A stretch of DNA of 64,000 nt from an uncultured Candidatus Saccharibacteria bacterium (GCA_964454845.1 CAYVVS010000001.1:87273-151272), one strand, 5' to 3'; shown: positions 6,068-63,448, numbered from the stretch's first letter. The notes: generated from the letters alone by a model not told the origin. Translations and numbers: made by a program.

Positions 6068-6099
6068 AGTGGATAACTCAAAAATGTTGTGGATAACTC
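6068..6099 (+). promoter_or_regulatory. Two direct repeats (A/T)GTGGATAACTC spaced 20 bp (DnaA-box-like, TTATCCACA on the other strand) in the nrdR/giant-gene divergent region
   Basis: AGTGGATAACTC at 6068-6079 and TGTGGATAACTC at 6088-6099. The second copy contains a perfect TGTGGATAA. Confidence 0.35.
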
Positions 6100-6202
6100 G
6101 TGCGCTAGAAACAGAAAACCCCTTACGCTTCCAGGTTGCATCAGATATAATAAACACAAGCTTTTTATTGAAGGCAGCTGTGCCTGTATGCAAACCAAAG
6201 AT

Positions 6203-9200: not shown

Positions 9201-12200
9201 GAACGAGTATAAAGATATATATTGATGGCGTTCAGGATGGGTCCGTAGCTGTAGGTGGTGTGTCGGTTGATAATGATAGGCCCTTGCTGATTGGTTCAGG
9301 GTTCGGTTCTTTGCAGGCGGGAGATAGTCGAAGGCGCTTTAACGGGCAGATTGATGAGGTGCGCATAAGTAGCACGGCACGCTCTAGTTTTACAGCAAAG
9401 CCGTATCTTAATACTGAACAGAGCGTGACATTATCGGATCCAATACGCACTAGTGGTATTGCGTCGTGGGTCGGATTTAATGCTAACGAGACAACAAATG
9501 GCGGGACAATTACGTATCGCTTGAGCAGTGATGATGGGGCGACATGGAAGTATTGGAACGGCGGTGCTTGGTCTACTTCGACAGAACTTAGCCAGTCGAG
9601 TAGTGCTACCGATGTTAATGCTCACATTGTCGATTTTCCAGTAACCTTCTCGGGCCTTCGTTGGCAGGCAGTCTTGAAGGGTGATGGCTCACAGAAAGTC
9701 ACGCTTGATTCGGTAGACATAACTTCAGATGCTGATAATGACGCGCCAATTGCGAATGCAACAAACTTACAGGCATTTACTAGTAATGGGGGTACTCAGC
9801 TCAATGATGCAGCCTGGACCAACTCTGCAACACCGTATTTTACTTGGGATGCTGCCTCTGATGCTGCAAGCGATATTTACGGGTACTGTCTCTACTTAGG
9901 GCAGTCAGCTTCTGATGATCCGGCGAGCAGCAAAGGGCTATTAGGAAGCTCTCCTGTAGATACGGGTGGGCACTGCCAATATGCTGTAAGCACTACATCG
10001 TTAGATCTGTCGCAGCCCGGAGTGTTGGCAACAGCCCTCAGTACGTCAGGCAGTAGCTATTATCTCAATGTGAAGGCGCTTGATGCTGCCGGAAATCTCT
10101 ATGGCTCATCTCAACAGTTTGAGTTTAAATTTGATAACACAGCACCATCGAATCCAAACTACATTAACGCTCCATCTCAGTTTGTGTCATCTAAGGAGGT
10201 AACTTTTACTTGGCCAACTACTGGGGGAGATGCCGCAGCTGACGCAAATTCTGGCGTGGTTGGTTTACAGTATAGAATTGGTGCAAATGGTACTTGGAGG
10301 GGTGACGGCACGGGAGGTTCTGGCAATCTTGCGAATGATGGCTCGTATACTACTCGTGACAACCCTGACTATGCCGACATTAATAATGGCAACAATGTGT
10401 TTTACTTCCGCACAATTGACGCTGCTGGTAATGTTAGTGCGAGCTATGTCTCGGCAACGTTACGGCTAAATACAGGTGCGCCAACAGGTCCACAAAATGT
10501 TACTGCTACACCGAGTACCAATACAAGCAACAACTTTGCTTTCTCTTGGGATCCACCCGCTAGTTATGCTGGTACTCCCGGTGCATTGACGTATTGTTAT
10601 ACCGTGAACACATTGCCAACCGAAAATACTTGTACGTTTACTGCAGCTGGAGTAACGAGTTTGTCTGCGGGAGCATATGCGACTCAGCCTGGTGAGAATA
10701 CTTTCTATGTTGTAGCTAAAGATAATAATATAAATTACGCTACTGCTGCGAGTACTACATTCACGGCGAACACCTCTGCACCAGGCATGCCACTCGATCT
10801 CGAGATTGCCGATATCTCCACTAAGGCTACTTCTTCGTGGAAGATCGCGCTGTCTTGGTCTGAGCCAACTGATACGGGAGCTGGTGTAGCGAGCTATAAA
10901 GTGTTCCGTTCGGCCACTGATTCTAATTACACGCAGATTGCCAGTACTGCTGGCGCAAGCTTTGTAGACTCTGGTCTGAGCCAGCAGACGTATTACTATA
11001 AGGTGAAAGCTTGTGATAGTGCCAACAACTGTGGCGCATTGAGCTCGAGCGTAAATAAATATCCGACTGGCCGCTTCACTACACCAGCTAATGCAACGTC
11101 AAACCCCGAGGTATCCAATGTAAGTACTCGCAAGGCTACCATCCGCTGGTCAACGGACAGAGTGAGTGACAGTAAGGTTTCAATCGGTACTGCTTCTGGA
11201 CAATATGAACCATTCCAGATAGCTAGCGGAGATCAAGTAACCGATCATACTATTCAGCTCACAAACCTCACGCCGGGAACCACGTATTTTGCTAAGGCTT
11301 CTTGGACTGATGAGGATGGGAATACTGGCAACTCTACAGAGTTCACATTCCAGACCGAACCTGCTCCATCTACTCAAGAAGTAAATACTACTCGAGTCGG
11401 CCTGAACTCTGCCCAGATCCGCTTAACTTCTGTGAGCGCTGCGCGCGTAGTTATTCAATATGGTAAGTCCGATAGCTTTGGTGGGGTAAAAGAGATTGCC
11501 ACATCGCTTTCTCGCTCTACCTACGATGTGGAACTTACAGGGCTGGATGATGACACAAAGTATTTCTACCGGCTCAACACCTACGACGCCGATGGCAATG
11601 AGTATGTAGGCAGTACTGTGTTAACTTTTACAACACCTGCGCGTCCTCGTATCTCTGATCTACGCTTTGAACCTGTGAGTGGCGAGCCAACTAGCACCCA
11701 AAAGGTTACTTGGAAAACAAATGTTGATACTACTTCTGGGGTGACATATGGCAAAGAAGGAACCAATGGCACTGATATACTGAATTCTACCCTCACTCGA
11801 GAGCATGAAATTATTATCCGAGGACTCGATGATAATAGTATTTATTTCTTAATTGCTCAGAGTCGCGATGTGGACGGTAATCTTGCGGCCTCTGATAGGC
11901 AAACTTTCCAAACTGCTCTGGATACACGACCTCCAACAATTAAAGATTTGGCCGTGGAGACAGTTGTGAAGGGCACAGGTAGTGATGCCCGTGGGCAGAT
12001 TATAGTGACTTGGACCACTGATGAGCCATCAACCAGTCAGGTTGCCTTTGGCGAAGGCACATCTTCAGAAAGTGTCACGAGTATGACCACTGAAGACGCC
12101 AATCTAACTACTGAACATGTTGTGATTGTGTCTGATCTTTCGACGGCACGCGTGTACAACATACAGGCTATCTCACGAGATAAGGCTCGCAATGAGGCTA

Positions 12201-12301
12201 AGTCTGAGAGTCAGTCGACGATCATTAACCGTGGTACAGATTCGATCCTCTCGATTATCGTCAATGTCCTCCAGCAAATATTCGGGTTTGAGGCAAACTA
12301 G
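6203..12301 (+). CDS. Giant surface protein 1 (about 2033 aa)
   Basis: Single long ORF, 2070 aa from the first ATG at 6089; the real start is probably 6188 or 6203. Domain order: basic N-terminus, one TM helix (WAVAVFYTLALSALLLL), LamG-like lectin, about 14 tandem 50-54-aa repeats (…LYxGxGxxxxDAEVWxWNGxxWTxIGGDG…), second LamG-like domain, many FN3-like units, conserved amphipathic C-terminal tail. Stop TAG at 12299-12301 is 1 nt before the next gene's ATG. Confidence 0.75.
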   Translation: MSKKTIEHLRHASKKALSVPGRCYVGASTARSRTIGSAHENLQRRYKWYEKWHAWNFKKINHQHVHWAVAVFYTLALSALLLLRVGVVRAADFTDSWDFTSIAAFLLDGGVEQNGSSISLKPQGYSSDGSTAALYHFDEAAGTSIDDSSSNNNDLTTTGLPGFVSGNLNNALSLDGTGQYASVADSTSLSMTGQMTLEGWIKPSSTFNNNSDFSQTIIDKGSYRMGLDRTSGRAFFEVERSGTQSWTKRLGDEQSGSWSFNHGGLDAMVANGTDLYAGTGLSTGDAEVWKWNGSSWTKIAGDGMNNSWPASTYEKVASLAVNGSSLYAGLGSTAGDAEIWTCNMNTNCTSWTKIGGDGNGPGVASHTAIESMAVYGGNLYVGGTSTSAGSADVWKYNGGTSWTQVGGDGLNSGWAASTFEAVSALYSDGTYLYAGIGVTTADGEVWRYNGTSWTMIGGDGVNLGGGASWNTNYERVSSITSYGGNLYVGLGDSANDAEVWRLSGTTWSQIGGDGLNSGWAGTAALTRVYSMVNDGTNLYVGLGSGSGAAQVWKWNGSSWTGLSVGGGNTTTSWTSSMIGAMVWANSKLYAAPSSSSNYGSGVYEYNGSAWNLIGGWFVNGSWGGADITRIMSSTTHDGKLYYGLGFATNNAQVYEYDGTTSRRVGGSGLNGSWPAWAYEGVYSMASYKGNLYVGLGSGAGDGEVWRWDGSNWTQVGGDGVGSSWNSGEAAVLSMTVFNGNLYIGLGSGAYQGDLWQYNGSTWTLVAGEPASGIGGQVNGSWNVNPRGVETMVVYNGQLCAGLGGSGAWGEVWCWSGSGNWTKIGGGNAVSVNGSWSSSIAVLAMATYRDKLYATIRTSGQAASIWEWDGSTWTQVAGADLNGSWSDSTYTWARTMAVYNGYLYAGTGYSGASNPTGDVWRWDGSTWTQAGGDGIANSWTTSDQREEVGDLITYKGKLYAATGYTGNSDALVYSFGDNAYTESATSSFDTNWHHLAGVYDGTSIKIYIDGVQDGSVAVGGVSVDNDRPLLIGSGFGSLQAGDSRRRFNGQIDEVRISSTARSSFTAKPYLNTEQSVTLSDPIRTSGIASWVGFNANETTNGGTITYRLSSDDGATWKYWNGGAWSTSTELSQSSSATDVNAHIVDFPVTFSGLRWQAVLKGDGSQKVTLDSVDITSDADNDAPIANATNLQAFTSNGGTQLNDAAWTNSATPYFTWDAASDAASDIYGYCLYLGQSASDDPASSKGLLGSSPVDTGGHCQYAVSTTSLDLSQPGVLATALSTSGSSYYLNVKALDAAGNLYGSSQQFEFKFDNTAPSNPNYINAPSQFVSSKEVTFTWPTTGGDAAADANSGVVGLQYRIGANGTWRGDGTGGSGNLANDGSYTTRDNPDYADINNGNNVFYFRTIDAAGNVSASYVSATLRLNTGAPTGPQNVTATPSTNTSNNFAFSWDPPASYAGTPGALTYCYTVNTLPTENTCTFTAAGVTSLSAGAYATQPGENTFYVVAKDNNINYATAASTTFTANTSAPGMPLDLEIADISTKATSSWKIALSWSEPTDTGAGVASYKVFRSATDSNYTQIASTAGASFVDSGLSQQTYYYKVKACDSANNCGALSSSVNKYPTGRFTTPANATSNPEVSNVSTRKATIRWSTDRVSDSKVSIGTASGQYEPFQIASGDQVTDHTIQLTNLTPGTTYFAKASWTDEDGNTGNSTEFTFQTEPAPSTQEVNTTRVGLNSAQIRLTSVSAARVVIQYGKSDSFGGVKEIATSLSRSTYDVELTGLDDDTKYFYRLNTYDADGNEYVGSTVLTFTTPARPRISDLRFEPVSGEPTSTQKVTWKTNVDTTSGVTYGKEGTNGTDILNSTLTREHEIIIRGLDDNSIYFLIAQSRDVDGNLAASDRQTFQTALDTRPPTIKDLAVETVVKGTGSDARGQIIVTWTTDEPSTSQVAFGEGTSSESVTSMTTEDANLTTEHVVIVSDLSTARVYNIQAISRDKARNEAKSESQSTIINRGTDSILSIIVNVLQQIFGFEAN

Positions 12302-12302
12302 C

Positions 12303-13142
12303 ATGGGTATGATTGATTTTGCCAGCATAAATAAGGACTTTGTTCTTCCGAATGAAACCATTCATGTATTAAAAGATGTGAATTTTTCTATACCTGAAGA
12401 GTCTTTTACGATTATGTATGGTCCTTCTGGCAGTGGTAAATCAACACTCTTAAATGTAATGGTTGGCTTAGAGGAGCCCACAACTGGCAAGGTGTCTCTT
12501 GCTGGCCAAGATTTATATTCTATGAACGCAGATCAGAGAGCTAATCATCGAGCACGATTGGTTGGCATGGTGTATCAATCGAATTATTGGGTGAATTCTT
12601 TAAGTGTTATCGAGAATGTTGCGATGCCACTGTATTTAGCGGGAGTGTCTCGCCGCGAGGCAGCTAAAGAAGCAATGGTAAGTTTAGAGAAGGTAGGTAT
12701 GCAGCAGTATGCTAAATCACGCCCGACAGTACTCTCTGGCGGTCAACAACAGCGAGTATCAATTGCTCGGGCGTTAGCTGGAGACCCTACTTTGATTGTC
12801 GCAGACGAACCAACTGGTAACTTAGACACAAAGAATGGCGATATGATTATGAATATGTTGTATGAATTACGACATAGAATGGGTAAAACGGTAGTGATGG
12901 TAACTCATAATCTTGGTTACTTGCCTCTGAGCGATCATCGTTTGCAGCTAAAGGACGGCATGGTGATTGCTGAAGAGGGTGAGTACGGGCTAAATAAAGA
13001 TGATAAGTCGAAGCTTCTTGAGGATTTTCAGAAAAGTATTAATGTTTTGTCTAGTGAGGAAGCATCAAGCACAAAAAATGTTGGTAAAAATACAGCAAAA
13101 CCTGCAGGTATAGATGGCATCTCGAAAGGAGGCAAAAAGTGA
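12303..13142 (+). CDS. ABC transporter ATP-binding protein, MacB/LolD/FtsE family (cassette 1)
   Basis: Walker A GPSGSGKST, Q-loop, signature LSGGQQQRV, Walker B LIVADEPT, H-loop. Start ATG 1 nt after the giant-1 stop. C-terminal ~60-aa Lys-rich tail. Confidence 0.85.
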   Translation: MGMIDFASINKDFVLPNETIHVLKDVNFSIPEESFTIMYGPSGSGKSTLLNVMVGLEEPTTGKVSLAGQDLYSMNADQRANHRARLVGMVYQSNYWVNSLSVIENVAMPLYLAGVSRREAAKEAMVSLEKVGMQQYAKSRPTVLSGGQQQRVSIARALAGDPTLIVADEPTGNLDTKNGDMIMNMLYELRHRMGKTVVMVTHNLGYLPLSDHRLQLKDGMVIAEEGEYGLNKDDKSKLLEDFQKSINVLSSEEASSTKNVGKNTAKPAGIDGISKGGKK

Positions 13143-14410
13143 GTTCTGCGCCCTTGTCACCGAAGAGCTCAGCAGCTCCGCAAGCCTCAGGAGCTCATGC
13201 TCGGACTGATCGCTCACGCTACATTAAGCGTTCAATAATTTGGTACGTTGCGCTTAAAAATCTGTTTGCTAAGAAGCTTAGGTCATCGTTGACCATTGGT
13301 GGCGTGGTAATTGGTATTGGGGCAATTGTGTTTTTGGTGTCATTGGGGCTTGGTCTGCAAAAAGTGGTTACCGAACAAGTAGTTGATTCAAAGTCTGTCC
13401 GTACTGTTGACATTACTTCCCCTAAGCCAAAGACCGTCCGTCTCGATGATGATGCTTTGCAGAAATTTAAGGCGATTAATCATGTAGATACTTTGGCGAC
13501 GAATTATTCAGCTGCCGGAAAAGTAGTATTTCAATCCGCAAATCTTGATTCCGTGGTAAATGGCCCAGACCCTACGTACACAGAACTTAATAATTTTAAG
13601 CGACTGGCTGGTGATACTTCTAAGATCACGGGGCTCGATCAGGTGGTTATCAATGAGGCGCTCGTAAATACGTTTGGTGTGAAAGACCCACAGAAAATGA
13701 TTGGGCAGCAGATGACAGTAAAGATCCCTAAGCTAGAAACAGCCGAAGGGACAGAAGAAGTTGAGCAGACCGCGAAAGTGGTGGCAGTGGTACGAACTGG
13801 TTCTGGTGCGGAAGTTTTCTTAAGCCCGCAAGTGTTTCAGCGCGCCCAAGCACGTAGCTATAGTCAGGTAAAGCTCTTAACTGATGTGCAAGAGAATGTG
13901 CCGGCCGTCCGACGTTCGATAGAAAGCCAGGGCTTTACGACAACTTCACCAGTAGATACGTTGGAGCAGATTAACCAAGTCTTCTCAATTCTTACGATTC
14001 TTCTAGCGGGTTTTGGGGCGATCGGTATGGTGATTGCAGTTTTGGGCATGATCAACACTCTTACCATCTCACTTTTGGAGCGCACGAAAGAGATTGGACT
14101 TTTAATTTCTCTCGGAGCACGTAAGAAGGACGTACGTAGACTGTTTGTGATTGAGGCCTTATTACTTTCTTTGATTGGTGGCATCGTTGGAATCCTTGGT
14201 GCTTGGCTTTTAGGTAAGGGGATAAATACGGCAATTGCCAATCTTGCTCGCTCCCGTGGTGTAGAAGATGCTTTTTCCTTCTTCTTTATCCCGTTCTGGC
14301 TGATTCTCGCAATCTTTGCATTTACGGCCACAATTGGTTTTCTCGTGGCATTTTTCCCGGCCCGACGAGCGAGTCGCATTAGCCCGATTGATGCGCTTCG
14401 ACACGACTAA
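13139..14410 (+). CDS. ABC permease, MacB/FtsX family (4 TM, large extracytoplasmic domain) (cassette 1)
   Basis: TM1, then a ~220-aa MacB-type extracytoplasmic domain, then the FtsX 3-TM bundle (…LTISLLERTKEIGLL…). GTG start overlaps the ATPase stop (GTGA). SD AAGGAGG 6 nt upstream. Confidence 0.8.
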   Translation: MSSAPLSPKSSAAPQASGAHARTDRSRYIKRSIIWYVALKNLFAKKLRSSLTIGGVVIGIGAIVFLVSLGLGLQKVVTEQVVDSKSVRTVDITSPKPKTVRLDDDALQKFKAINHVDTLATNYSAAGKVVFQSANLDSVVNGPDPTYTELNNFKRLAGDTSKITGLDQVVINEALVNTFGVKDPQKMIGQQMTVKIPKLETAEGTEEVEQTAKVVAVVRTGSGAEVFLSPQVFQRAQARSYSQVKLLTDVQENVPAVRRSIESQGFTTTSPVDTLEQINQVFSILTILLAGFGAIGMVIAVLGMINTLTISLLERTKEIGLLISLGARKKDVRRLFVIEALLLSLIGGIVGILGAWLLGKGINTAIANLARSRGVEDAFSFFFIPFWLILAIFAFTATIGFLVAFFPARRASRISPIDALRHD

Positions 14411-15849: not shown

Positions 15850-16030
15850 AAGTACATAAATGAATAGGGCGTAAAAAAGTAGCCTCACCATCTACTTAAG
15901 GCCTCGTAGCTACGGGCGTAACACGTAGCACAACAGTGATTTACCTTTCCTGGTAAGTAAGTCTGGTGGAACCCCCCAAAGTATTGGGGCCAGACGCATC
16001 GGGATAGGTGTTTTTATTTAAATGAGAGTA
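15850..16030 (+). promoter_or_regulatory. Possible T-box riboswitch leader of thrS
   Basis: About 200-nt leader between tRNA-Val and thrS. GGTGGAACC resembles the T-box core GGTGGNACC, and UGGA would pair with an ACCA 3' end as on tRNA-Thr (discriminator U). ACA/ACG triplets are available as specifier. No clean terminator hairpin plus U-run seen. Confidence 0.3.
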
Positions 16031-16040
16031 GGAGATAAAG

Positions 16041-54158: not shown

Positions 54159-54322
54159 TAGTATTAGAATTTATGCGTGTTTCTGTATTACTCTCTACTT
54201 TACATATATATGACTCTAGGGACAATAGTTTTTATGCTTAATTCAGCTCTTTTGACGCAAAAAAGTATTCATTTTGCTCTCCTTGGTGTGATATAGTGAT
54301 AGTGAGTTAGCATAAGCGTTTC

Positions 54323-57300
54323 ATGCGCAAAAAAGTCATGACAAAATCCAAAAAGCAAATCCCACAGAAATCTACTCGTTTAGTTGACGCAGTTCGTCAG
54401 TCGAGTGTTGCTGTGCGTAAAAACTCTCAATCGTTTGAGGCTATTCAACACAAGACGAGGCTCGGTGTAGTTTACATTGCAGTAAAGGACTTTGTTCGAC
54501 GTGCGCCTGAGAATCTTAAGGTGGGTGTGAGCAGAGCGGGGAGAAGCAGGCAGCGCATACTTGGAAAAATAGCTGCTAGGCTACCAAAGATAGCTCTTCC
54601 ACAATTTCAAGCTTCCAACAGGTTAAAAAGCGTTGTAGCCAGTACATCATTAGTTGTCATGATGGTACTGATGTTCTTTAATATGGGGGTCCATAATGTT
54701 GCGCGCGCTTTTGATACGCTCAATCAATCCGATTGGAGTGGCGGACAAGGTATAAGTCCGGTTAATCAGTATGAGGAGAAAGATGGCAATGTTGTAACTG
54801 CTACAGCGGGTCAGTTGAGCTTGAGTGGTGGAGCTTCTGCCTGGTGCAGTACCGCAAACTGCAATACGAATTGGACACGACGCAAGGTTCTCGTACCACG
54901 TGGCGGCATAAATGACACGGATATGACTTATGCGCAAGTTCAATTGACTGTTGAATATGAAAATGAAATGAAGTCTGATTTTAGCGACTTACGTTTTACG
55001 AATCGGTATAGCAATCAAGATGTTCCGTATTGGGTTATGCGTAAGACAGACGGTGTATCTGCGACTGTCTTTTTGAAGATACAGCTTTCAAGTGGTGGCG
55101 TGGATAGTCATACGTATATGTACTACGGAAATGCGGCGGCCACCTCTCTATCGTCTAAGGGAGGCGTGTTTGATCTGTATGACTCTTACGACACGGGTAG
55201 CCTTCAGGGTAACTATTTTGATATCGATGGTGCTGATGGGGAGATTGATGGACTTGGAGGTAAGCTAACCCGGCTTGATTATGGTATTAGTCACCCCGGC
55301 CCATTTTCTCGAGATCGCACTCGAGTATACGAAGCCGACCTTAAGTTAGATCTCTCTTCATATACATGTGGCGACTCTGCCGGTGTGGGATCTATAGAAA
55401 TAGGCTTCCAGGGTGGTACGGCAGAGCTCTACTTTGATATGCCTGCAAATTGCGATAGCAATGGCAAATATTGGAGGGTTTCTGGTGCTACTAACGGGAG
55501 TGAGTCGGTAAATTTTCCAGACTCTACTGCCTATCATTTTACCTCGAATATATATGTGCGCCTGCGGTTAGTGGCGTATCAGGATGGCGGGCATGCTTAT
55601 TTCTTCAGTCGGGATAATGGAGAAACATATACGGCTTTCCCCGGTGTTAATACCGGTATAAATAGTGATAATTTTCCTACGGAATATTACTTAAGCAATG
55701 GCAATGCTGTAACGACATATCGTCATGTGGTTGCGTACCAGGGACTACTGGATAGAAGTACGTCGCTTAATTTTGATGCATCTGTTGAAGAATATGTAAA
55801 TGGCAGAGTCGGTGGATTTACGAGTGTTGAGTATGACTTAGGCTCTGACAGGACGTTCTTTGGAGATCTAAATATTACCTACACCGGTACGGGTGCTGTC
55901 GGAGTGTACATATCGGGGTCTGACACCCCAGGAGGTACACTTGATTCAATCTCTATGTATGTTAGTTGTCCGTTCGTTAAAAATACCACAGCTATTTCTT
56001 CGGATTGTCTACCCGCAGGGAGTCGTTACGTGAGGTACTATTTGCTGCTTTCTTCTGATGCTGCAAATAGCCTCGTTATTCAGGATGTATCACTTGAATA
56101 CTCAATTGATGTAGACAGTCCAACGATAGTCAGTGGTGTGCAGACGCGTAGAACGAGTAATAATGCGGTAATCTCGACCGGCTGGATAAATGAGACACCA
56201 AAATTTAGTTGGAATGCCTCTGTCGATGGTGTAGATGGTTCGGGCATTGCTGGATATTGTTTGTATTTTGGTACTGATAGCGGCGCTGATCTAAGTACAA
56301 CCCAAGGTTTGTTACCTACAACAAGCCCATATGATACTGGAGGATTATGCCAATACGCCATACAGGCCACGTCGCTAGACTTGTCGCAACTAACATTACA
56401 GAGTTCGCTGACTACAAATACACAATACCACCTAAAAATACAGCCATTTGATAATGCTGGGAATCTGGCGACCGCAACAACGAGTGCTCTTGGCTATGAT
56501 ACTGATACTCCTGGACCATATACGACTGCGTTTGGGCCTAACGGGTATGTCAATTCGCCAATACAGCCAGTAAACTGGGCAAAAGACGCACCAGCGATGG
56601 TAGTTGACGATGGTGGTTCCGGGGTTGCGGGCATTAAATATTGTGTCTTTAGCTACGCGACTGGTGATGGGTGTAGTCTATTTGGTGGTTCGCCATCTGA
56701 TTTTCCTTGGTATGGACCGGCTCGCACCAATAGCCTTCCAAACGATCCTATAGATGTATATAGTTTTTCGAGCGGTGGTTTTAACCTTGTAGACGATGAT
56801 TTGGCCCGTATGACCGATGAAGGGCTTAATGGTGTTGTTTTGCTCCTGATTGATAACGCGGGTAACGTTGCGCAATTTGGTTCAGGTGGAGCTCCTGTAA
56901 TTATTAATGTTACTCAGCAGCCTCCATCAGCTCCGCAAAATTTACAGGTAAGTCCTAGTAGTAATAATGAAAACGCGTTCTCATTCACATGGGCAGCTCC
57001 CGCGACCGCATCAGGCCCAACTGGTCAAGTGGATTATTGTTGGACGGTAAACGTATCCATAGCTTCCGATGGCAGCAATTGTAATTGGACCGGTCAAGGT
57101 ATTACACAGCTCGCACAGGGAGCTTACGCCACGCAACAGGGTAGCAATACACTGTATTTGATGGCCAAGGATCAGTCGCAGAATTTTTCTAATGCCAATG
57201 TGACGAGTGTGAATTTCACAGCAACAACTGTGGCGCCCGGGCCACCTCAGAACCTCGAGCTTTCAGATGTGTCAATTCGCGCTACGAGTAGCTGGAAGAT

Positions 57301-58771
57301 TGCGCTTAGCTGGAGTGCCCCGCAGCTTCCCGGTTCCGGAATTGCGAGCTATAAGATTTATCGCTCAACCAATAATGTGAACTTTACAGAAGTAGGAACA
57401 ACATCAAGTACGAATCTAAGCTTTATCGATTCTGGCCTCTCGCAGACTGACTACTATTATTATGTGAAAGCTTGTGATGATGCCGATAGTTGCAGTGTGG
57501 CAAGTAATACGGAGACCAAGTATCCAAACGGGCGTTATACTACCCCGGCTCGTTTGACTGACGATACGGATCAACCAAAGATTAGGGATATTGGTACGCG
57601 TAAAGCTACTATTTATTGGTTTACGGATAGGGCAAGTGATTCAAAGATTGCCTATGGCACTGCACCTGGTCAGTACTTCCCAGAAGAGGTCGGGAATTCA
57701 ACACAGGATTCATCTCATGTTGTAAATCTTACAAACTTAGAGCCAGGTAAGACGTATTACTATGTGGCTCGTTGGACTGACGAAGATGGGAATACGGGCA
57801 TTTCCCAGGAGAGGGCGTTTACAACACTGCCGGCACCAACTGTGCGGGAAGTTTCAGCTTCAAACCTTACAATAAGCTCTGCTGCTGTTAATTTTACAAC
57901 TGAAAATGCATACAAGGCTAATGTATACTTCGGTACCAGCGATGCTTTTGGGGGCGTGAAGAGCATAAATACATCAATTTCTTCATCAAGCTACAGCTTG
58001 AGCTTGAATGATTTGCAAGATGGTCAAAAATATTTCTACAAAATAAGCACCGTAGATGCGGATGGCTATGAATATCAGGGTGATATATACAGTTTTACTA
58101 CTCCAGCTCGTCCAAAAATTACGAATTTGCGCTTTGAGACGGTAGAGGGTGAGCCGAGCAGTACCCAAAAAATTGTATGGACAACCAATGTGGCCACTAC
58201 AAGTGAAGTGGTGTATGGGTTGGTTGGGGGAGAGCAATCTGAAGCTGTGAGCTCCACTCTGGTGACGGAACACGAAGTGATAGTTCGTGGTTTGGCGGAC
58301 AACGCTGATTATGAGTTGGTTGCGCGTTCCCGCGACGCTGCCGGTAACCTCGCGGTTTCTGATAAACAGTTCTTTCAAACAGCCGAAGATACACGCGCGC
58401 CAAAAGTCTCAGAATTTAAGGTTGAGACGGATATCCGTGGAACTGGTGGAGAGGCACGTGGGCAGATAATTGTATCGTGGCGCACAGATGAGCCGGCTAC
58501 TAGCCAAGTGGCGTTTGCTAAGGGGCGTACAACAGAGCTCAGTAACCGTTCCTCGCAGGATACACGCTTAACTACTGAGCATGTCGTGGTCGTGTCTGAC
58601 CTTACTACTTCAAGTATCTATCAAGTGCAGGCAGTGTCGGCTGATAAGGCCGGTAACGAGTCGTTTTCCGATGCTCAAACAGCAATTATTGGTCGCGGTA
58701 CTGAAAATATCTTCAGTATCATCTTTAATGCGCTGCAAGCTATCTTTGGCTTTGGGGATACGAATTTATGA
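54323..58771 (+). CDS. Giant surface protein 2 (1482 aa; paralog of giant 1 C-terminal module)
   Basis: Basic N-terminal ~100 aa and one TM helix (SLVVMMVLMFF). Distinct beta-sandwich N-terminal domain (…DLRFTNRYSNQDVPYWV…). From about aa 630, a ~850-aa FN3-rich module collinear and similar to the C-terminal module of giant 1, same C-terminal tail (…IFSIIFNALQAIFGFGDTNL). Stop overlaps the next ATG. Start may be 54338. Confidence 0.8.
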   Translation: MRKKVMTKSKKQIPQKSTRLVDAVRQSSVAVRKNSQSFEAIQHKTRLGVVYIAVKDFVRRAPENLKVGVSRAGRSRQRILGKIAARLPKIALPQFQASNRLKSVVASTSLVVMMVLMFFNMGVHNVARAFDTLNQSDWSGGQGISPVNQYEEKDGNVVTATAGQLSLSGGASAWCSTANCNTNWTRRKVLVPRGGINDTDMTYAQVQLTVEYENEMKSDFSDLRFTNRYSNQDVPYWVMRKTDGVSATVFLKIQLSSGGVDSHTYMYYGNAAATSLSSKGGVFDLYDSYDTGSLQGNYFDIDGADGEIDGLGGKLTRLDYGISHPGPFSRDRTRVYEADLKLDLSSYTCGDSAGVGSIEIGFQGGTAELYFDMPANCDSNGKYWRVSGATNGSESVNFPDSTAYHFTSNIYVRLRLVAYQDGGHAYFFSRDNGETYTAFPGVNTGINSDNFPTEYYLSNGNAVTTYRHVVAYQGLLDRSTSLNFDASVEEYVNGRVGGFTSVEYDLGSDRTFFGDLNITYTGTGAVGVYISGSDTPGGTLDSISMYVSCPFVKNTTAISSDCLPAGSRYVRYYLLLSSDAANSLVIQDVSLEYSIDVDSPTIVSGVQTRRTSNNAVISTGWINETPKFSWNASVDGVDGSGIAGYCLYFGTDSGADLSTTQGLLPTTSPYDTGGLCQYAIQATSLDLSQLTLQSSLTTNTQYHLKIQPFDNAGNLATATTSALGYDTDTPGPYTTAFGPNGYVNSPIQPVNWAKDAPAMVVDDGGSGVAGIKYCVFSYATGDGCSLFGGSPSDFPWYGPARTNSLPNDPIDVYSFSSGGFNLVDDDLARMTDEGLNGVVLLLIDNAGNVAQFGSGGAPVIINVTQQPPSAPQNLQVSPSSNNENAFSFTWAAPATASGPTGQVDYCWTVNVSIASDGSNCNWTGQGITQLAQGAYATQQGSNTLYLMAKDQSQNFSNANVTSVNFTATTVAPGPPQNLELSDVSIRATSSWKIALSWSAPQLPGSGIASYKIYRSTNNVNFTEVGTTSSTNLSFIDSGLSQTDYYYYVKACDDADSCSVASNTETKYPNGRYTTPARLTDDTDQPKIRDIGTRKATIYWFTDRASDSKIAYGTAPGQYFPEEVGNSTQDSSHVVNLTNLEPGKTYYYVARWTDEDGNTGISQERAFTTLPAPTVREVSASNLTISSAAVNFTTENAYKANVYFGTSDAFGGVKSINTSISSSSYSLSLNDLQDGQKYFYKISTVDADGYEYQGDIYSFTTPARPKITNLRFETVEGEPSSTQKIVWTTNVATTSEVVYGLVGGEQSEAVSSTLVTEHEVIVRGLADNADYELVARSRDAAGNLAVSDKQFFQTAEDTRAPKVSEFKVETDIRGTGGEARGQIIVSWRTDEPATSQVAFAKGRTTELSNRSSQDTRLTTEHVVVVSDLTTSSIYQVQAVSADKAGNESFSDAQTAIIGRGTENIFSIIFNALQAIFGFGDTNL

Positions 58772-59571
58772 GTCAGTCTCTTGTTTCTTTCCGCGATGTC
58801 TCGCGTGATTTTCGTGCTATAGATGGTACGGTGAGTGTTTTGAAGGATATAAATTTTGAGGTAGAACCTGGTAGTTTTACTATTATTTATGGACCTTCTG
58901 GTAGTGGTAAGACAACAATTTTGAATATGATTTTGGGTCTTTTGCCGCCAACCAAGGGGGATGTCGTGGTGGCCGGGCAAAGCTTGTATGATCTCAATCA
59001 AGATGGTCGTGCAAAGTTTAGGGCCGCACATTATGGTGTGGTGAGCCAAGTGAATAACTGGGTCCTCAGTATGAATGTGCAGGAGAATGTTGCCCTGCCG
59101 TTATATCTTTCGGGTACTCCACGTCATGAAGCACTTAAGAAGGCTGCGGCTAGCATTGAGCGTGTTGGGCTTGCGAAGTATATGCGCTACAATCCGGCAG
59201 TGTTGTCAATTGGTCAACAACAGCGCATTTCTATGGCGCGAGCTACCGTAAAAACACCGCAACTTTTGATAGCTGACGAGCCGACCGGCAACCTTGATAC
59301 CACGAATGGCGACATGATTATGCAGCTGATGACCAGCTTTAGAAATCATGAAAATACTACAGTGATTTTGGTTACACACAATCTTGATTATCTTTCTTTA
59401 AGTAGCCATAGATTATTCTTAAAAGATGGCGTGCTCTCAATTGATGAGGGCGGCTACCAATCCGAAGAAGAGCGTCGTCGCATGCTGATGACAAGCTTCT
59501 TGGAGGTGAATAAGGCGGCTGAAATACAACCAGCAAAAGTTCCTGTAAAGAGAGGTGGTAAACGTGGCTGA
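58768..59571 (+). CDS. ABC transporter ATP-binding protein, MacB/LolD/FtsE family (cassette 2)
   Basis: Walker A GPSGSGKTT, LSIGQQQRIS signature, Walker B LLIADEPT. Paralog of 12303-13142. ATG overlaps the giant-2 stop (ATGA). Confidence 0.85.
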   Translation: MSQSLVSFRDVSRDFRAIDGTVSVLKDINFEVEPGSFTIIYGPSGSGKTTILNMILGLLPPTKGDVVVAGQSLYDLNQDGRAKFRAAHYGVVSQVNNWVLSMNVQENVALPLYLSGTPRHEALKKAAASIERVGLAKYMRYNPAVLSIGQQQRISMARATVKTPQLLIADEPTGNLDTTNGDMIMQLMTSFRNHENTTVILVTHNLDYLSLSSHRLFLKDGVLSIDEGGYQSEEERRRMLMTSFLEVNKAAEIQPAKVPVKRGGKRG

Positions 59572-60847
59572 ACGTAAGCGCATGAATGACACGGTGTCCG
59601 AAAAAGTGCTTGCACCGCGTGTGCGTAAACACCATCATTCTGAGCAAGAAGGGGTGATTGCGACGTCGATTTTGGTACGAATGGCTGCTCAAAATCTTTT
59701 CTTTAAAAAACTTCGCACCACGCTGACTATTTTGGGGGTAGTTATCGGAATTGGCGCAGTTGTATTCTTGCTCTCATTTGGTTATGGCCTTCAGGACCTC
59801 GTAAGCCGCCAGGTAGTCGGGTCAAAATCGGTTAAGAGTATTGATGTGACTAAGCCGCGTTCAGCAGCTATAAAGTTTGATGGCGATAATATTACCCGCA
59901 TGAAAAATATTGGTTCGGTTGAGGAAGTAGCGCGGGTTTATACCGAGGCGGCAAAGGTAAAATCTGGCGGCTCGCAAGTTGATTCTGTGGTCTTTGGGGT
60001 TGATGCAGAATATCTAGATCTCAGTTCAGTTCGCGTTGTTACAGGAAAGTCGTTGCTGGCTGGCGGTGGGACCGATGAGGCACTCGTGAATACTTCGCTG
60101 GCTAAGGCTGTAGGCTTACCGCAGGGTGATCAGGCGCTTGGTAAGGTGATTAGCCTAAACCTGGATATCGTGCAGGCCGATGGGGTTAAAAAATCGATTC
60201 AAAAAGATGTAAAAGTGATTGGTCTGGTGGAAGGTAACGCAAGTGCTGAAGCGTTTGTTCGTAGTCAGCTGTTTATCGAGAATGGTGTCCAAGATGCGAG
60301 CCAGGTTAAGATACTTACGACTGACCGCAGCACAGTCGGGCAAGTGCGAAAAGAAGTTGAAAGCATTGGGTTTGCCACCGCTTCGCCGCTCGACACGCTG
60401 GACCAGATTTCACAAGTCTTTGGTCTCTTACAGATGATCTTTCTTGGGTTTGGCGGCATTGGCATGGTGATTGCTATTTTGGGTATGTTTAACACGCTCA
60501 CCATCTCACTCTTGGAACGCACGCGAGAAATAGGTTTACTGATTGAGTTTGGTGCTCGCCAGAGAGATATAAAACGACTTTTCATTATCGAATCGTTGAT
60601 GCTTTCTGTATTAGGGGGCTTCATCGGGCTCGTGAGCGCCTTTATGCTTGGTAGGTTTGCGGATATAGCGATAAGCAGCTTTGCGCGCAGTCGTGGCGTT
60701 CAAGAGGCAGTCTCAGCGTTTATGGTAACCCCTCAGTTGGCAATAACTACACTAGTCTTAAGCGCATTGTTTGGTCTCATCGTTGTATATTTCCCAGCCC
60801 GACGAGCATCTCGAATTGATCCGATTGACGCGTTGAGGTACGAATAG
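59564..60847 (+). CDS. ABC permease, MacB/FtsX family (cassette 2)
   Basis: Paralog of 13139-14410, same TM1 / extracytoplasmic domain / FtsX organisation. Start ambiguous: GTG 59555, GTG 59564 (best SD spacing) or ATG 59582. Confidence 0.75.
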   Translation: MAERKRMNDTVSEKVLAPRVRKHHHSEQEGVIATSILVRMAAQNLFFKKLRTTLTILGVVIGIGAVVFLLSFGYGLQDLVSRQVVGSKSVKSIDVTKPRSAAIKFDGDNITRMKNIGSVEEVARVYTEAAKVKSGGSQVDSVVFGVDAEYLDLSSVRVVTGKSLLAGGGTDEALVNTSLAKAVGLPQGDQALGKVISLNLDIVQADGVKKSIQKDVKVIGLVEGNASAEAFVRSQLFIENGVQDASQVKILTTDRSTVGQVRKEVESIGFATASPLDTLDQISQVFGLLQMIFLGFGGIGMVIAILGMFNTLTISLLERTREIGLLIEFGARQRDIKRLFIIESLMLSVLGGFIGLVSAFMLGRFADIAISSFARSRGVQEAVSAFMVTPQLAITTLVLSALFGLIVVYFPARRASRIDPIDALRYE

Positions 60848-60849
60848 AG

Positions 60850-63093
60850 GTGGCACAAATAGATCCTCGCCACGCTATGAAACTGGGGCTTTACTGCCTA
60901 GTGTCTCTTGTGCTGAGTCTGATAGTCTTTTCGCAGTCTGCGAAGGCCTATGATGGAGAAGTAAATTATATTGGCACAAACACGAATTTAAGTGGGGATG
61001 ATAACTCTGCCGGGCCATTCAATTTGGGGTTTACATTTCGACATTTCGACACGGATTATACGCAAGCTTATATAAACATTAACGGCACTGTTAATTTTGG
61101 TACGGCCTATGCCGGCTATAGTAATGTGGGCTTGCCGAGTGCAACGCCTGGGCGCTGTGTGTGTGCTTTTTGGGATGATCTCATCACTCAATCTGGCAAG
61201 AAGTCTATTTACTACGCAACAATAGGCGATGCGCCAAATCGTAAGTTTGTAGCGCAATGGACGAACATGTATTTTTACTCAAATCCAAGCCTACCAATGG
61301 GTACGTTCCAGGTTATTTTGTATGAAGGTAGTAATGATATCCAGATTCAATATCGCGATCTTCTCGGAGGTACTGATTCGCAGGGTACGAGTGCAACAAT
61401 TGGCATCAATAAGGATGCGGCAACCGCCTATCAGCATTCCTATAACTCGGCGGGCATCACCCAAGAGCAGGCTATTCGTTATAGCTATACTTCGACTGAC
61501 ACCTATAACGTCAATACGGCTGCAAGCTACGATCCAGTCTACTTGCTGGGTTCCGATGTCCCGGCTAGTCCCAACCTTATTAATCCTACCAATGGTGTGA
61601 CGGGGGTTACTACGACACCAACTTTCGAGTGGCAGGCCGTAGATTTGGCTACATCTTATCGAGTATTAATTTCTACAGTAAGCAACTTTTCCACTACAGT
61701 CGTAAACCAATCGGGGCTGACTGGAACTAGCTATACGCTTGGTTCTGCTTTGAGCTACAACACTTTGTACTACTGGCGAGTTGAAGCAATTAACAGTAGT
61801 GGTTCAAGTTTTTCTGGGACTCGCACGTTTACTACTTCCGCTCAACCTAATGCTGCACCTTCAACCCCTACAGGGCTGGGGGCTTCTCTGTTGTTGAGCG
61901 GCGGCCGGTTGAACCTCGCCACACTGATGAATACAGATTTTGCGTTTACACTTTCGGACTCGGACGCAGGTGAGCAGCTTCGTTATAGGATACAGATAGC
62001 AAATGATACAGCATTTAGTGATTTGGTTATTGATTATCGATCTGAGTTTGCTTCGGCGGGTGCGCGCACATTCAATTTTGGTGATAGCGGCACCTATCTT
62101 GTGGGGAGTGCAAGCACTACGCTTGTGGATGGAGATGAGTATTATTGGCGCGTGAGAGCTGAAGATGACGGAAGCGCTTCATCGAATTATGCGACTGCAA
62201 CCGTGAGCGGTTCTGCATTCACCTACGATATTACGGCTCCTGATGCCCTTGCTAAGCCTACACTTGTCGGGCAAGCACTCATTAGGGGCACACTTGTGAG
62301 TTGGGACGCCACGACCGATATACATCCGGCCGCGCAAGCTTATAGGTTGGAGTATGCCGCTCAGGCTGACTTTAGTGACGCGCAGGTGGTAACTACCTCG
62401 GCTGCAACTGCAAGTCTCGCTAACCTGACGGCAGGGGAGTGGTTTGTCAGGGTATTCGTTATCGATGCCGCTGGCAACCAGTCATCTGCAAGTCCAACCC
62501 TAAGCTTTACGTTGGAGCCGGCAGTCGAAGGGCCGGTTACGAGTCCGGATACCGTGATTGAGGTTATATCTACACCCCCACCGAAGAGTATCGTACCGAA
62601 AACTCTTGTTCCACAAGCTAATATTTCAACTAGCACTACTCGATCGGTTAACGAAAATCGAGCAGCAGATTCAGCAAAGGTTGTAACAGTACGTATCGTT
62701 GTGAGAGATCAAAACGGTAGTCCTTTACAGGGCGCAGTTGTGACACTATATTCAACGCCGCGTACTGCGATCACGGATGATAGGGGTGTTGCCGTATTCG
62801 AGAGTATGCCAGTAGGGCAGCATACCGCCGTCGTGAGTTACGCTGGCCAAGTTGTACGCCAGTCAGTAAAGCTTGAATCAAGTATGGTTACATCTAGTGC
62901 TGAGGCGGCGGTGGATCTAGCTGTGGAAGTACCTGCGGTACTAGGTGTAGAGCCTATCCGTGCTCAGTCTCTTCGGCTGCAAGGAAGCCCCCACTTTATT
63001 ATTGAGCTTATGCTGATTACGGGCCTTTCATTGTTATTTATTCTCGTCGTTGAAAAACGCTCCAGTAATAAGCTGAGTAGTAAGACGAAGTGA
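60850..63093 (+). CDS. Secreted FN3-repeat protein with carboxypeptidase-regulatory-like domain and C-terminal TM anchor (747 aa)
   Basis: Signal peptide MKLGLYCLVSLVLSLIVFSQSAKA (alternative start 60877). FN3-like units (…PTFEWQAVDLATSYRVLIS…YYWRVEAIN…). Transthyretin/CarboxypepD_reg-like beta-sandwich (…VTVRIVVRDQNGSPLQGAVVTLYS…). C-terminal hydrophobic helix and basic tail. Begins 2 nt after the permease stop. Confidence 0.7.
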   Translation: MAQIDPRHAMKLGLYCLVSLVLSLIVFSQSAKAYDGEVNYIGTNTNLSGDDNSAGPFNLGFTFRHFDTDYTQAYININGTVNFGTAYAGYSNVGLPSATPGRCVCAFWDDLITQSGKKSIYYATIGDAPNRKFVAQWTNMYFYSNPSLPMGTFQVILYEGSNDIQIQYRDLLGGTDSQGTSATIGINKDAATAYQHSYNSAGITQEQAIRYSYTSTDTYNVNTAASYDPVYLLGSDVPASPNLINPTNGVTGVTTTPTFEWQAVDLATSYRVLISTVSNFSTTVVNQSGLTGTSYTLGSALSYNTLYYWRVEAINSSGSSFSGTRTFTTSAQPNAAPSTPTGLGASLLLSGGRLNLATLMNTDFAFTLSDSDAGEQLRYRIQIANDTAFSDLVIDYRSEFASAGARTFNFGDSGTYLVGSASTTLVDGDEYYWRVRAEDDGSASSNYATATVSGSAFTYDITAPDALAKPTLVGQALIRGTLVSWDATTDIHPAAQAYRLEYAAQADFSDAQVVTTSAATASLANLTAGEWFVRVFVIDAAGNQSSASPTLSFTLEPAVEGPVTSPDTVIEVISTPPPKSIVPKTLVPQANISTSTTRSVNENRAADSAKVVTVRIVVRDQNGSPLQGAVVTLYSTPRTAITDDRGVAVFESMPVGQHTAVVSYAGQVVRQSVKLESSMVTSSAEAAVDLAVEVPAVLGVEPIRAQSLRLQGSPHFIIELMLITGLSLLFILVVEKRSSNKLSSKTK

Positions 63094-63396
63094 GCGGCTG
63101 ATCGCTTAGTCGCACAATTCTAGTTAGTATAAAATGTTAAAGTTTTTTGGAGCCGGCAGGCCCTTTTTATTTTGGTCCCGCTATGTGTTTATGCGTGTTT
63201 GTCGGCCAACACAAAGCTTGAGGGGTGGTACGAGGGGATTTATTAGTTGCATAAATTTCGTCAAAAAAGAAACCAGGTTAGGGTGGTTGTGGGGACCGTC
63301 CTAACCTGGAGAAGTGTCTTGTGTGTTTGTTTTTGAGTAATATATGTGTGCAGCAGCACTACACCGATAATACGGCTTATGCATAACCTTTGTCAA

Positions 63397-63428
63397 CAAA
63401 AAAGTTGTGGATAACCACAACTTTTTTA
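63397..63428. terminator. Bidirectional terminator downstream of fba (A-run / 12-bp perfect inverted repeat / T-run)
   Basis: AAAAAGTTGTGG-ataa-CCACAACTTTTTT. Confidence 0.6.
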
Positions 63429-63448
63429 CACGAACATGCGTTTACAGG

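Follow-up and report, generated by a model that had tools for sequence, protein, structure and literature searches.

We describe a three-gene module, conserved among Saccharibacteria, in which the gene for a giant, fibre-like surface protein is followed directly by the genes for an ABC ATPase and a MacB-type (type VII) permease. The window, a stretch of 64,000 nucleotides from an uncultured Candidatus Saccharibacteria bacterium, carries two such cassettes. The partnership between giant and pump is well supported by gene context. We lean towards the interpretation that the pump has the fibre as its extracytoplasmic partner and docks or manipulates the fibre's C-terminal tail helix, which would control anchoring or release.

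Layout of the two cassettes

The four open reading frames, their junctions, and their domains, as described in an earlier sequence-only reading of the window, agree with our ORF calls, junction reading, and Pfam searches (Table 1). The junction between giant B and ATPase B is an ATGA at 58768-58771. Three codons could start permease B: the GTG at 59564, 8 nt ahead of where the ATPase stop ends; a further GTG in frame at 59555; and the ATG at 59582. An overlapping start is favoured because conservation among permease B orthologues begins at residue 2-3. The permease stop (TAG, 60845-60847) is separated by 'ag' from the GTG start of gene 4 at 60850, for which an ATG at 60877 is the alternative; in the closest relative (L020), the sole usable in-frame start of the gene 4 homologue is a GTG overlapping the permease stop. 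Obligate co-expression and fixed stoichiometry, which the earlier reading drew from these junctions, are an over-reading. Four-nucleotide start/stop overlaps are frequent across this compact genome (those at 3302, 13139, 20075, 25573, 39513, and 46209 among them), and coupling at the four-gene cassette is therefore not unusual by itself.

The conserved unit also proved to be three genes long, and not four as first proposed. The fourth gene encodes a 747-aa protein whose hydropathy profile shows a signal peptide and, as anchor, a TM segment at the C-terminus. Among the loci compared, it was found only in L020; it is missing from the syntenic locus L001, and neither ABC nor giant genes adjoin its homologues P0163, P0166, and P0177. 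On this distribution, the gene is a lineage-specific passenger outside the conserved unit.

Table 1. Features of cassettes A and B in the window (aa, residue numbering of the encoded protein)
Feature	Position	Strand	Description
Giant A	6089..12301	+	up to 2070 aa; Laminin_G_3 head, same stalk and tail (…RGTDSILSIIVNVLQQIFGFEAN)
ABC ATPase A	12303..13142	+	ATG 1 nt past giant A stop; 51% identity to ATPase B
MacB-type permease A	13139..14410	+	423 aa; overlaps ATPase A stop (GTGA); 44% identity to permease B
Giant B	54323..58771	+	1482 aa; signal-like N-terminus, ConA/lectin-like heads including DUF2341, FN3-like stalk, C-terminal helix
Giant B signal-like N-terminus	54323..54709	+	~100-aa basic n-region, core aa 101-119, c-region ending A-R-A, aa 127-129
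Giant B head region	54710..56182	+	aa 130-620; all-beta ConA-like jelly rolls, lectin/glucanase fold
Giant B conserved stalk	56030..58681	+	~aa 570-1453, roughly 900 aa; FN3/Pur_ac_phosph_N-like beta-sandwich array
Giant B tail motif	58682..58753	+	aa 1454-1477, AIIGRGTENIFSIIFNALQAIFGF; last beta-strand and amphipathic helix
ABC ATPase B	58768..59571	+	267 aa; start overlaps giant B stop codon
MacB-type (type VII) permease B	59555..60847	+	up to 430 aa
747-aa surface protein gene	60850..63093	+	NIDO, Ig/fn3, CarboxypepD_reg (Pfam); TM by hydropathy

The paralogous cassette lies at 6089-14410, with an AAGGAGG upstream of the permease A start. BLASTP aligns giants A and B, tail included, at 44% identity over 927 aa, and their C-termini are 55% identical; values for the ATPases and permeases are in Table 1. 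For every component, the paralogue in the same genome is more distant than the orthologues from other genomes, and pairwise distances among the triplet genes correlate at 0.71-0.87, values that species phylogeny confounds. Judged from these comparisons, the triplet was duplicated and then co-diverged as a unit. Genomes of about 0.9 Mb retain two or three pump copies.

Conservation of the giant, ATPase, and permease triplet

The sequence-only reading had staked its case on the giant and the ABC pair being conserved as a unit, and they are at every related locus examined. Our survey covered 97 giants with an intact C-terminus from 78 sources, with loci found mostly via the giant and only four via the permease. 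Seventy-nine giants are followed by the ATPase and then the permease (median giant-ATPase gap of 9 nt, with 77 of the gaps at 75 nt or less), another 15 are followed by a second giant with the same tail and then by both pump genes wherever the contig continues, and 3 lie at contig ends; we found no exception in this set. The reverse held as well: permease homologues with 45-47% identity, picked independently of the giant, had a giant of 1833-2072 aa and an ATPase upstream in four of four cases, each in a different flanking context. Across the survey, the triplet was seen in several distinct genomic contexts.

The DUF2341 domain (PF10102) belongs to giant B by its score (47.8 bits against a cut-off of 23.4) and is absent from giant A by Pfam. 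No ABC genes lie beside DUF2341 giants that are missing the tail. Since giant A does without DUF2341 and these tail-less giants have no pump, the domain is not what defines the module. As far as gene neighbourhoods tell, the ABC pair tracks the stalk and tail and not the variable lectin-like head. Conservation of an operon can stem from co-regulation instead of direct contact between giant and pump.

The organism is a CPR bacterium, a Saccharibacterium, as the sequence-only reading had considered possible, and the triplet is present in many environmental Saccharibacteria. We would not follow that reading as far as a host-attachment apparatus. The fibre may serve attachment to a host or another surface, and neither DUF2341 nor Pur_ac_phosph_N proteins appear in the Pfam table of Southlakia, a cultured Saccharibacterium; with no such giant evident there, the system does not seem to belong to the epibiotic lifestyle in general.

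Architecture of the giant and the pump

Hydropathy analysis of giant B gave one hydrophobic segment only, at the N-terminus (aa 101-119), and no C-terminal TM segment. Its A-R-A is followed by the conserved motif QSDWSGG. About 80 giants share this n/h/c layout, ending in AxA with the conserved motif next, and A129, D137, G141, and G143 (giant B numbering) are invariant in the alignment. The n-regions span 20-130 aa, are basic and His-rich, and are poorly conserved even between orthologues; the hydrophobic segment measures 17-20 aa, and the AxA site falls 7-12 residues past the core. This N-terminus resembles a Sec signal with AxA at its end, where cleavage would occur. It may instead be a stable membrane anchor, given that a basic n-region of ~100 aa is unusually long for a cleaved signal, in which case the tail would stand at the distal tip.

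The Pfam domains of giant B are DUF2341, fn3, and Pur_ac_phosph_N. Heads differ across the family (DUF2341, Laminin_G_3, and NHL inserts), and the FN3-like stalk is common to giant A and all family members. In the structure model, the last three stalk domains of giant B reach a pLDDT of about 90. No short motif of the family is better conserved than the tail that follows, which is amphipathic, and the earlier reading was right to single it out. Its helix has 17 residues (aa 1459-1475), and only 5 residues separate the motif from the end of the protein. Ninety-five distinct tails match aIIGR[AG][ST][DE]xx[LF]x[IV][IV]xNxLxxxFG plus a hydrophobic residue (in short form, IIGRxxDxxxxIIxNxLxxxFG-hydrophobic). 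The segment has a hydrophobic moment of about 0.45 and does not reach the TM threshold; the helix is modelled with a pLDDT of about 57 and is therefore not confidently packed. Among 1.84 billion representatives the motif had 61 matches, nearly all at the extreme C-terminus and mostly in proteins of 1000-2050 aa, the shorter entries probably being fragments. NCBIfam has no model for the tail and gave only a sub-threshold FN3-like match. Known sorting signals (sortase LPXTG, exosortase PEP, GlyGly, and others, or a TM segment plus basic cluster) are absent from the tail, whose end carries no basic cluster. Tails are nearly identical between the paralogous cassette types, and so the tail alone cannot account for the separate pump of each type.

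All the domains for which the sequence-only reading had suggested profile searches (ABC_tran, MacB_PCD, FtsX, fn3, and DUF2341) were matched. ATPase B matches ABC_tran (E 3e-30, 106 bits), and its nearest NCBIfam models, FtsE, LolD, YbbA, MacB, and DevA, all score under cut-off. The Walker A, Q-loop, signature (LS[GIV]G[QE]), Walker B (DEPT), D-loop, and H-loop motifs are kept in 68 ATPase orthologues, which gives the system the cognate, catalytically equipped NBD that marks type VII ABC systems. Permease B matches MacB_PCD at aa 55-270 (E 8e-19, 69 bits, cut-off 27) and FtsX at aa 299-423 (E 9e-17, 62 bits, cut-off 25.5). Hydropathy places four TM segments at about 57-75, 295-320, 340-368, and 395-413, with an extracytoplasmic domain of ~215 aa between TM1 and TM2; this is the type VII, MacB-fold layout of four TM segments, a C-terminal FtsX domain, and a large TM1-TM2 ectodomain. 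The closest solved chains by PDB sequence matches are 5xu1 Spr0695, MacB, YtrF, and LolC/E/F. Permease homologues carry the automatic source name 'antimicrobial peptide transport system permease', which is naming and not a test.

Relation to known systems and possible roles of the pump

Type VII ABC systems include MacAB-TolC, LolCDE-LolA, FtsEX-EnvC/PcsB, and YbbAP-TesA, and Spr0693-0695 and YtrEF in Gram-positive bacteria. They typically work via a function-defining extracytoplasmic partner that is often encoded nearby, as with macA and tesA, which adjoin their pump genes as the giant does here (PMC12646458). The triplet shares with them the separate NBD with intact motifs and the 4-TM FtsX-domain permease with its large ectodomain. 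It differs in the partner, which is a lectin/FN3 fibre of 1400-2100 aa as opposed to an HlyD-type adaptor, chaperone, coiled-coil activator, or esterase, and unlike MacAB-type pumps the triplet loci hold neither an adaptor nor an outer-membrane component. Equivalog scores for FtsE, LolD, LolCE, MacB, and FtsX were all far under their cut-offs. A tripartite MacAB or Gram-positive MacAB-like system (Spr0693-0695, YknXYZ) was rejected, with no HlyD or Biotin_lipoyl domain in the called genes of loci L001-L004 and L078-L081 or in the scanned window ORFs. FtsEX was rejected on its scores (FtsE 184 bits against 264.85; FtsX models 26-32 against 225-255), on a permease ectodomain that matches MacB_PCD, and on a partner that is all-beta rather than coiled-coil. 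LolCDE likewise fell short (LolD 182.5 bits against 307.75; lolCE 71 against 362).

Outside the type VII group, the nearest parallel is LapA with LapEBC, in which a giant repetitive adhesin-like protein also stands beside its own ABC system and has a functionally important element at its extreme C-terminus. That T1SS uses an ABC_membrane exporter, whereas the permease here has the FtsX/MacB fold; the triplet comes with neither a membrane fusion protein nor an outer-membrane protein, its host, a CPR bacterium, is monoderm, and the giant has an N-terminal Sec-type signal-like segment and no RTX repeat domain among its Pfam hits. A T1SS with an RTX adhesin was rejected accordingly. Gram-positive fibrillar adhesins such as S. 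epidermidis Aap combine a signal peptide, lectin head, repeat stalk, and C-terminal anchor; unlike Aap, the giant ends without an LPXTG/sortase signal or TM-plus-basic anchor, and its candidate anchor is the conserved tail helix together with the pump. For such a helix, E. coli PBP5 offers a precedent, given that its 18-residue C-terminal amphipathic helix keeps this secreted protein tethered on the outer side of the cytoplasmic membrane (PMC2909392). Both are terminal amphipathic helices of ~17-18 residues on Sec-exported proteins, too short for the bilayer, the giant's tail being a candidate membrane tether. PBP5 (DacA) has no dedicated ABC system, and the sequences are unrelated. Our search of the literature and family libraries turned up no account of a giant with a MacB-type ABC system, in agreement with the sequence-only reading.

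Several other roles for the pump were weighed against this interpretation. MacB-type pumps are known to operate with N-terminally anchored adaptors, and by that precedent the giant could be a permanently anchored type II membrane adaptor, with its TM segment and cytoplasmic n-region packed on the permease and ATPase as MacA's N-terminal helix is on MacB, its ectodomain on the pump, and its tail a distal tip contacting or inserting into the host envelope. The long, basic, His-rich n-regions with their hydrophobic segment are unusual for a cleaved signal, and the retention of a separate pump per cassette type despite near-identical tails may mean that specificity lies at the divergent N-terminus. 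We consider this unlikely, given that the conserved AxA and following motif are the pattern of a signal-peptidase substrate, that membrane-proximal lectin heads with an outward stalk would reverse the order of known fibrillar adhesins, and that n-regions are poorly conserved even among orthologues. A similarly small chance attaches to a pump that has a small hydrophobic substrate (such as a lipid, glycolipid, or antimicrobial peptide) and shares the operon only because both serve the cell surface, for example by exporting or extracting a lectin-bound membrane glycolipid or by scavenging host lipids along the fibre. Characterised MacB-type systems do extract lipids, lipoproteins, glycolipids, or peptides (PMC12646458), the heads have lectin-like folds, and the source names of the permease homologues point the same way, automatic as those names are. 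Yet the pump accompanies the stalk and tail under any head and is missing beside tail-less DUF2341 giants, and the lack of exceptions among the surveyed giants, with several pump copies in reduced genomes, speaks for something beyond generic efflux.

That the ABC pair exports the giant, as a monoderm analogue of the LapA/LapB-like T1SS reading the C-terminal motif as a secretion signal, we regard as improbable enough to weigh little. A conserved motif at the extreme C-terminus with ABC genes in cis does follow the genetic logic of RTX adhesins, but the giant has a Sec-type signal or anchor of its own, its Pfam hits include no RTX repeat, no ABC_membrane, HlyD, or OMF domain occurs in the called proteins of the annotated loci, and the 4-TM MacB/FtsX fold with its large ectodomain is understood to form no transmembrane channel and to work on the extracytoplasmic side (PMC12646458). 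We give least credence of all to an FtsEX-like hydrolase, in which the head would be a GH16- or PL7-type glycanase switched by the ABC pair and acting on host or own wall polysaccharide. Head identity to any enzyme is only 6-15%, with lectins scoring equal or better; the head has no invariant Glu, and the GH16 ExDxxE motif is therefore absent; an EnvC- or PcsB-type coiled-coil adaptor is lacking; and the head varies across the family while the pump stays constant.

In the interpretation we favour, with the fibre as partner and the tail as the element acted upon, Sec would export the giant via its N-terminal signal-like region, probably with a cut after AxA. The mature protein would present variable lectin-like heads at one end of an FN3-like stalk and, at the other, a short amphipathic helix unable to span the membrane. 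This helix would rest in the outer leaflet, as in PBP5, and/or dock on the permease dimer. Through mechanotransmission, ATP binding and hydrolysis would shift the ectodomain and TM helices of the permease so that the tail helix is held, deployed, or extracted. The pump would thus probably act on the conserved C-terminal helix, whether to retain or to release it, giving the cell control over whether a glycan-binding attachment fibre stays anchored or is let go. The giant fibre would represent a previously undescribed kind of partner for MacB-type membrane motors.

A conserved three-gene module

The four forward-strand genes that the sequence-only reading had described as one translationally coupled cassette (cassette B) are present exactly as it placed them, and its domain calls were borne out by Pfam for all four proteins. 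The giant, a large surface protein, carries DUF2341 together with fn3 and Pur_ac_phosph_N domains and is followed by an ABC_tran protein, a MacB_PCD and FtsX protein, and a 747-aa protein with NIDO, Ig/fn3, and CarboxypepD_reg domains. Hydropathy analysis gave a single hydrophobic segment at the N-terminal end (aa 101-119) and no transmembrane (TM) helix at the C-terminus for the giant, four TM helices and an ectodomain of ~215 aa for the permease, and a signal peptide plus a C-terminal TM anchor for the 747-aa protein. The junctions are also real: giant and ATPase overlap through ATGA at 58768-58771, a permease GTG start at 59564 falls 8 nt ahead of the end of the ATPase stop (with alternatives at GTG 59555 and ATG 59582), and a 2-nt gap precedes GTG 60850 of the fourth gene, which has an alternative start at ATG 60877. 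What did not stand is the distinctiveness of the coupling, given that 4-nt start/stop overlaps are frequent all over the window, and we therefore discarded it as special evidence. A promoter and terminator scan of 53900-63600 returned counts not above those of shuffles.

Coordinates of the two cassettes and of neighboring genes in the window
Feature	Position	Strand	Basis or remark
Cassette A: giant, ABC ATPase, MacB-type permease	6089-14410	+	Paralogous to cassette B
S8 subtilase	44455-46212	-	
2649-aa protein	46209-54158	-	
Giant B, 1482 aa	54323-58771	+	ORF call
ABC ATPase B, 267 aa	58768-59571	+	ORF call
Permease B, 430 aa	59555-60847	+	ORF call
Fourth gene, 747 aa	60850-63093	+	ORF call

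The proposed four-gene unit was reduced to three genes. L020, the closest relative (87% identity), is the only surveyed locus with the 747-aa gene, and the sole usable in-frame start of the gene there is a GTG overlapping the permease stop. The gene is absent from the syntenic locus L001, in which the permease is followed by an aldolase gene, and where full-length homologues occur elsewhere, neither ABC genes nor a giant lie beside them. The 747-aa gene is a lineage-specific insertion. Its relatives are widespread in Patescibacteria with varied C-terminal parts, and one of them, P0254, is named "choice-of-anchor U domain-containing protein" by one source. The NIDO (nidogen-like) domain is mostly known from animals.

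The prediction that giant, ATPase, and FtsX-type permease are conserved as a unit held in both directions. Loci of giant orthologues (38-67% identity) always continue into an ABC ATPase and a MacB_PCD/FtsX permease. In a tblastn survey of 78 sources, 97 giants with an intact C-terminus were counted, and the ATPase directly follows 79 of them (median gap, 9 nt), with the permease after it wherever the contig goes on (in L029, at 14962-16125). A second tail-bearing giant comes next in 15 cases, including L014, and then the pair wherever the contig goes on; the remaining 3 giants lie at contig ends. No giant without the pair was found among the 97. Conversely, when four permease homologues (45-47% identity) were picked solely for the length of their contigs, without reference to the giant, all four had an FN3/Laminin_G giant of 1833-2072 aa and an ATPase directly upstream, in a flanking context that was different each time.

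The window itself contains a second copy, cassette A, which is flanked by the L25 and DinB genes and has syntenic counterparts in L003, L004, and L080. Its 2070-aa giant has a Laminin_G_3 head on the same stalk and tail as giant B; the ATPase starts at ATG 12303, 1 nt past the giant stop, and the permease start overlaps the ATPase stop (GTGA at 13139). Between the two cassettes, identity is 44% over the C-terminal 927 aa of the giants (BLASTP) and 55% over their last 300 aa, 51% for the ATPases, and 44% for the permeases, and all three genes are nearer to orthologues in other genomes than to the in-genome paralogue. Across 68 cassettes, pairwise distances correlate at 0.80 for giant C-terminus and permease, 0.71 for giant C-terminus and ATPase, and 0.87 for ATPase and permease; species phylogeny contributes to these values, and it is the paralogue pattern that shows that the module duplicated as one unit and remained linked. 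Several other metagenome-assembled genomes (MAGs) also carry two or three cassettes.

A search with the giant alignment gave 73 loci from species-representative genomes, nearly all of them Saccharibacteria/Saccharimonadia MAGs, the few exceptions having labels that are generic or probably wrong. L076 (DATIJU010000010.1), labeled "Bacillota bacterium," contains a typical Saccharibacteria-type cassette of a 2066-aa giant, ATPase, and permease, and probably reflects wrong taxonomy or a mis-binned contig. A genome scan returned 537 matching stretches in species-representative genomes, and genomes of <1 Mb often hold two or three module copies. The remainder of the window shows synteny with the closed 916-kb genome CP064998.1. 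Given that the Pfam table of Southlakia, a genetically tractable Saccharibacterium, contains no DUF2341 or Pur_ac_phosph_N protein, the module appears to belong to environmental lineages rather than being universal to epibiosis.

Anatomy of the giant, its pump, and their neighbors

About 80 giants share an N-terminal layout in which a basic, often His-rich n-region (20-130 aa) precedes a hydrophobic core of 17-20 aa and a short c-region ending in AxA, with an invariant alanine (Ala129). A conserved motif follows, which reads QxDWSGGxG in giants of the DUF2341 type and DLxxxWDF in those of the Laminin_G type. Substrates of signal peptidase are built in this way, and cleavage would be expected. 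In many loci (for example, L004, L026, L033, L038, and L080), a His/aromatic-rich motif, W-H-x-x-K-H-H-x-K-V-H, recurs directly before the core.

The heads vary between cassettes (DUF2341, Laminin_G_3, or NHL-like inserts) and appear to be exchangeable modules carried by a constant stalk and tail. The NHL-repeat inserts, at ~5494-6390 in L008 and ~15140-16084 in L023, resemble the repeats of the 2649-aa protein described below. The stalk, ~900 residues of FN3/Pur_ac_phosph_N-like domains, is conserved in all cassette types. The tail has the consensus aIIGR[AG][ST][DE]xx[LF]x[IV][IV]xNxLxxxFG plus a hydrophobic residue, followed by at most ~8 more residues (95 distinct sequences). The IIG residues make up the closing beta-strand of the final domain, and the rest is a predicted 17-residue helix that is amphipathic and scores under the TM threshold; at a pLDDT of ~57, against ~90 for the adjacent domains, its packing is not confident. 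Among 1.84 billion representative proteins, the tail matched 61, nearly all at the extreme C-terminus and mostly in proteins of 1000-2050 aa, the shorter entries probably being fragments. NCBIfam has no model for the tail, which can serve as a simple sequence marker for finding such fibers.

The functional link of the pump is with the stalk/tail module, given that stalk, tail, and pump stay constant across cassettes while heads differ and that the DUF2341 giants P0017 and P0018, which have other kinds of C-terminus in place of this stalk and tail, have no ABC neighbors. DUF2341 was rejected as the link, since the domain is missing from giant A and no pump accompanies DUF2341 giants that have no tail. 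The permease has the MacB/FtsX fold, with Spr0695, MacB, YtrF, and LolC/E/F as its closest solved relatives. The ATPase is nearest to FtsE, LolD, YbbA, MacB, and DevA but falls far under every equivalog cutoff; its catalytic motifs are preserved in 68 orthologues. No HlyD-type adaptor was found in the annotated loci. The ABC signature reads LSIGQQQR in the B-type cassette (59194-59217), and 16 of the 68 orthologues have LS[IVT]GQ where LSGGQ/E is canonical, their other catalytic motifs being canonical.

Upstream of cassette B, the secreted S8 subtilase is a conserved divergent neighbor of the B-type cassette (43-80% identity), found also in L001, L006, L020, L021, and L023; none was seen beside A-type cassettes. 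It could act in proteolytic processing of the fiber. The 2649-aa gene overlaps it by 4 nt and is absent at the syntenic site in L001. Its product has ~2170 aa of extracytoplasmic NHL beta-propeller repeats and FN3 domains between TM1 (aa 39-57) and three more TM helices, ends in HATPase_c, and looks like a giant sensor histidine kinase. In several loci, genes for histidine-kinase-like proteins and response regulators occur within a few kilobases of the cassette, namely in L009 (21770-23101), L078 (10301-10678), and L080 (10253-13747) and also in L027, L033, L050, L054, L055, and L058, a possible sign of two-component regulation.

Known systems and proposed mechanism

Each established system was ruled out by a defining feature that the module does not share. 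The module lacks the adaptor that defines MacAB, fails FtsEX and Lol on scores and partner type, and fails T1SS on fold and by its Sec signal. The giant tail also differs from sortase-type sorting signals in having no motif, TM helix, or basic end. The genetic logic of the module is similar to that of LapA/T1SS, in which a giant adhesin comes with an ABC system of its own, and its function to that of type VII ABC systems with their partners. Southlakia has essential FN3 and VCBS proteins (SEML1_0890 and SEML1_0891), but these are small and unrelated and were set aside. In line with the earlier remark that no giant adhesin was known to have its own FtsX-type pair in cis, no description was found in curated models or in the literature on Saccharibacteria with DUF2341, FtsX, or MacB, on Southlakia, or on YtrEF/type VII systems. 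The one DUF2341 paper found (PMC11809585) gives only domain counts for large Patescibacteria proteins.

Rather than carrying substrates through the membrane, type VII ABC systems work on its extracytoplasmic side via a partner protein, which defines their function and is often encoded nearby (PMC12646458), and in PBP5 an 18-residue C-terminal amphipathic helix suffices to tether a secreted protein to the outer face of the membrane (PMC2909392). Combining the two, we propose that the fiber would be exported by Sec with its lectin heads distal, that its terminal helix would rest in the outer leaflet, on the permease, or both, and that the ATPase cycle would clamp, deploy, or extract this helix. 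We infer this mechanism and its biological role; the genomic signal of a dedicated partnership is unusually clean. A direct functional partnership between giant and pump, in whatever geometry, is likely, and we lean toward the giant being the direct partner with its interface at the stalk/tail end. Only tentatively do we suggest an ATP-powered anchor for a surface fiber, in which the tail would be a new sorting and anchoring signal, independent of sortase, and a dedicated MacB-type pump would recognize this signal and either clamp the fiber onto the membrane or eject the fiber. Because the tail hardly differs between cassette types, it does not explain why each type has its own pump.

Other readings place the giant or the pump differently. 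The giant might act as an N-terminally anchored adaptor. A T1SS-like exporter would share the genetic logic of LapA and meets the same mismatches of fold and signal. The pair might instead be a small-molecule pump that only shares an operon with the giant, a reading that the lack of exceptions among the 97 giants and the several pump copies in reduced genomes speak against. Finally, the giant might be a regulated glycanase; as a GH16 or PL7 enzyme, its head was rejected for having no invariant acidic catalytic residue and identities of 6-15%.

The partner protein is the basis on which type VII ABC systems are classified, and every new partner has brought another envelope process to light, among them efflux, lipoprotein sorting, cell-wall-hydrolase control, and lipid hydrolysis. 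A giant lectin/FN3 fiber as partner would add a further class, and, if the proposal is true, this would be the first type VII system with a giant adhesin in that role. To our knowledge, little has been described of the ways in which Patescibacteria keep their many giant surface proteins anchored and working and attach to hosts, and the module is a concrete, widespread, and testable candidate for both fiber anchoring and host attachment. If the proposal is true, an ultrasmall epibiont could engage and disengage glycan-binding attachment fibers on demand.
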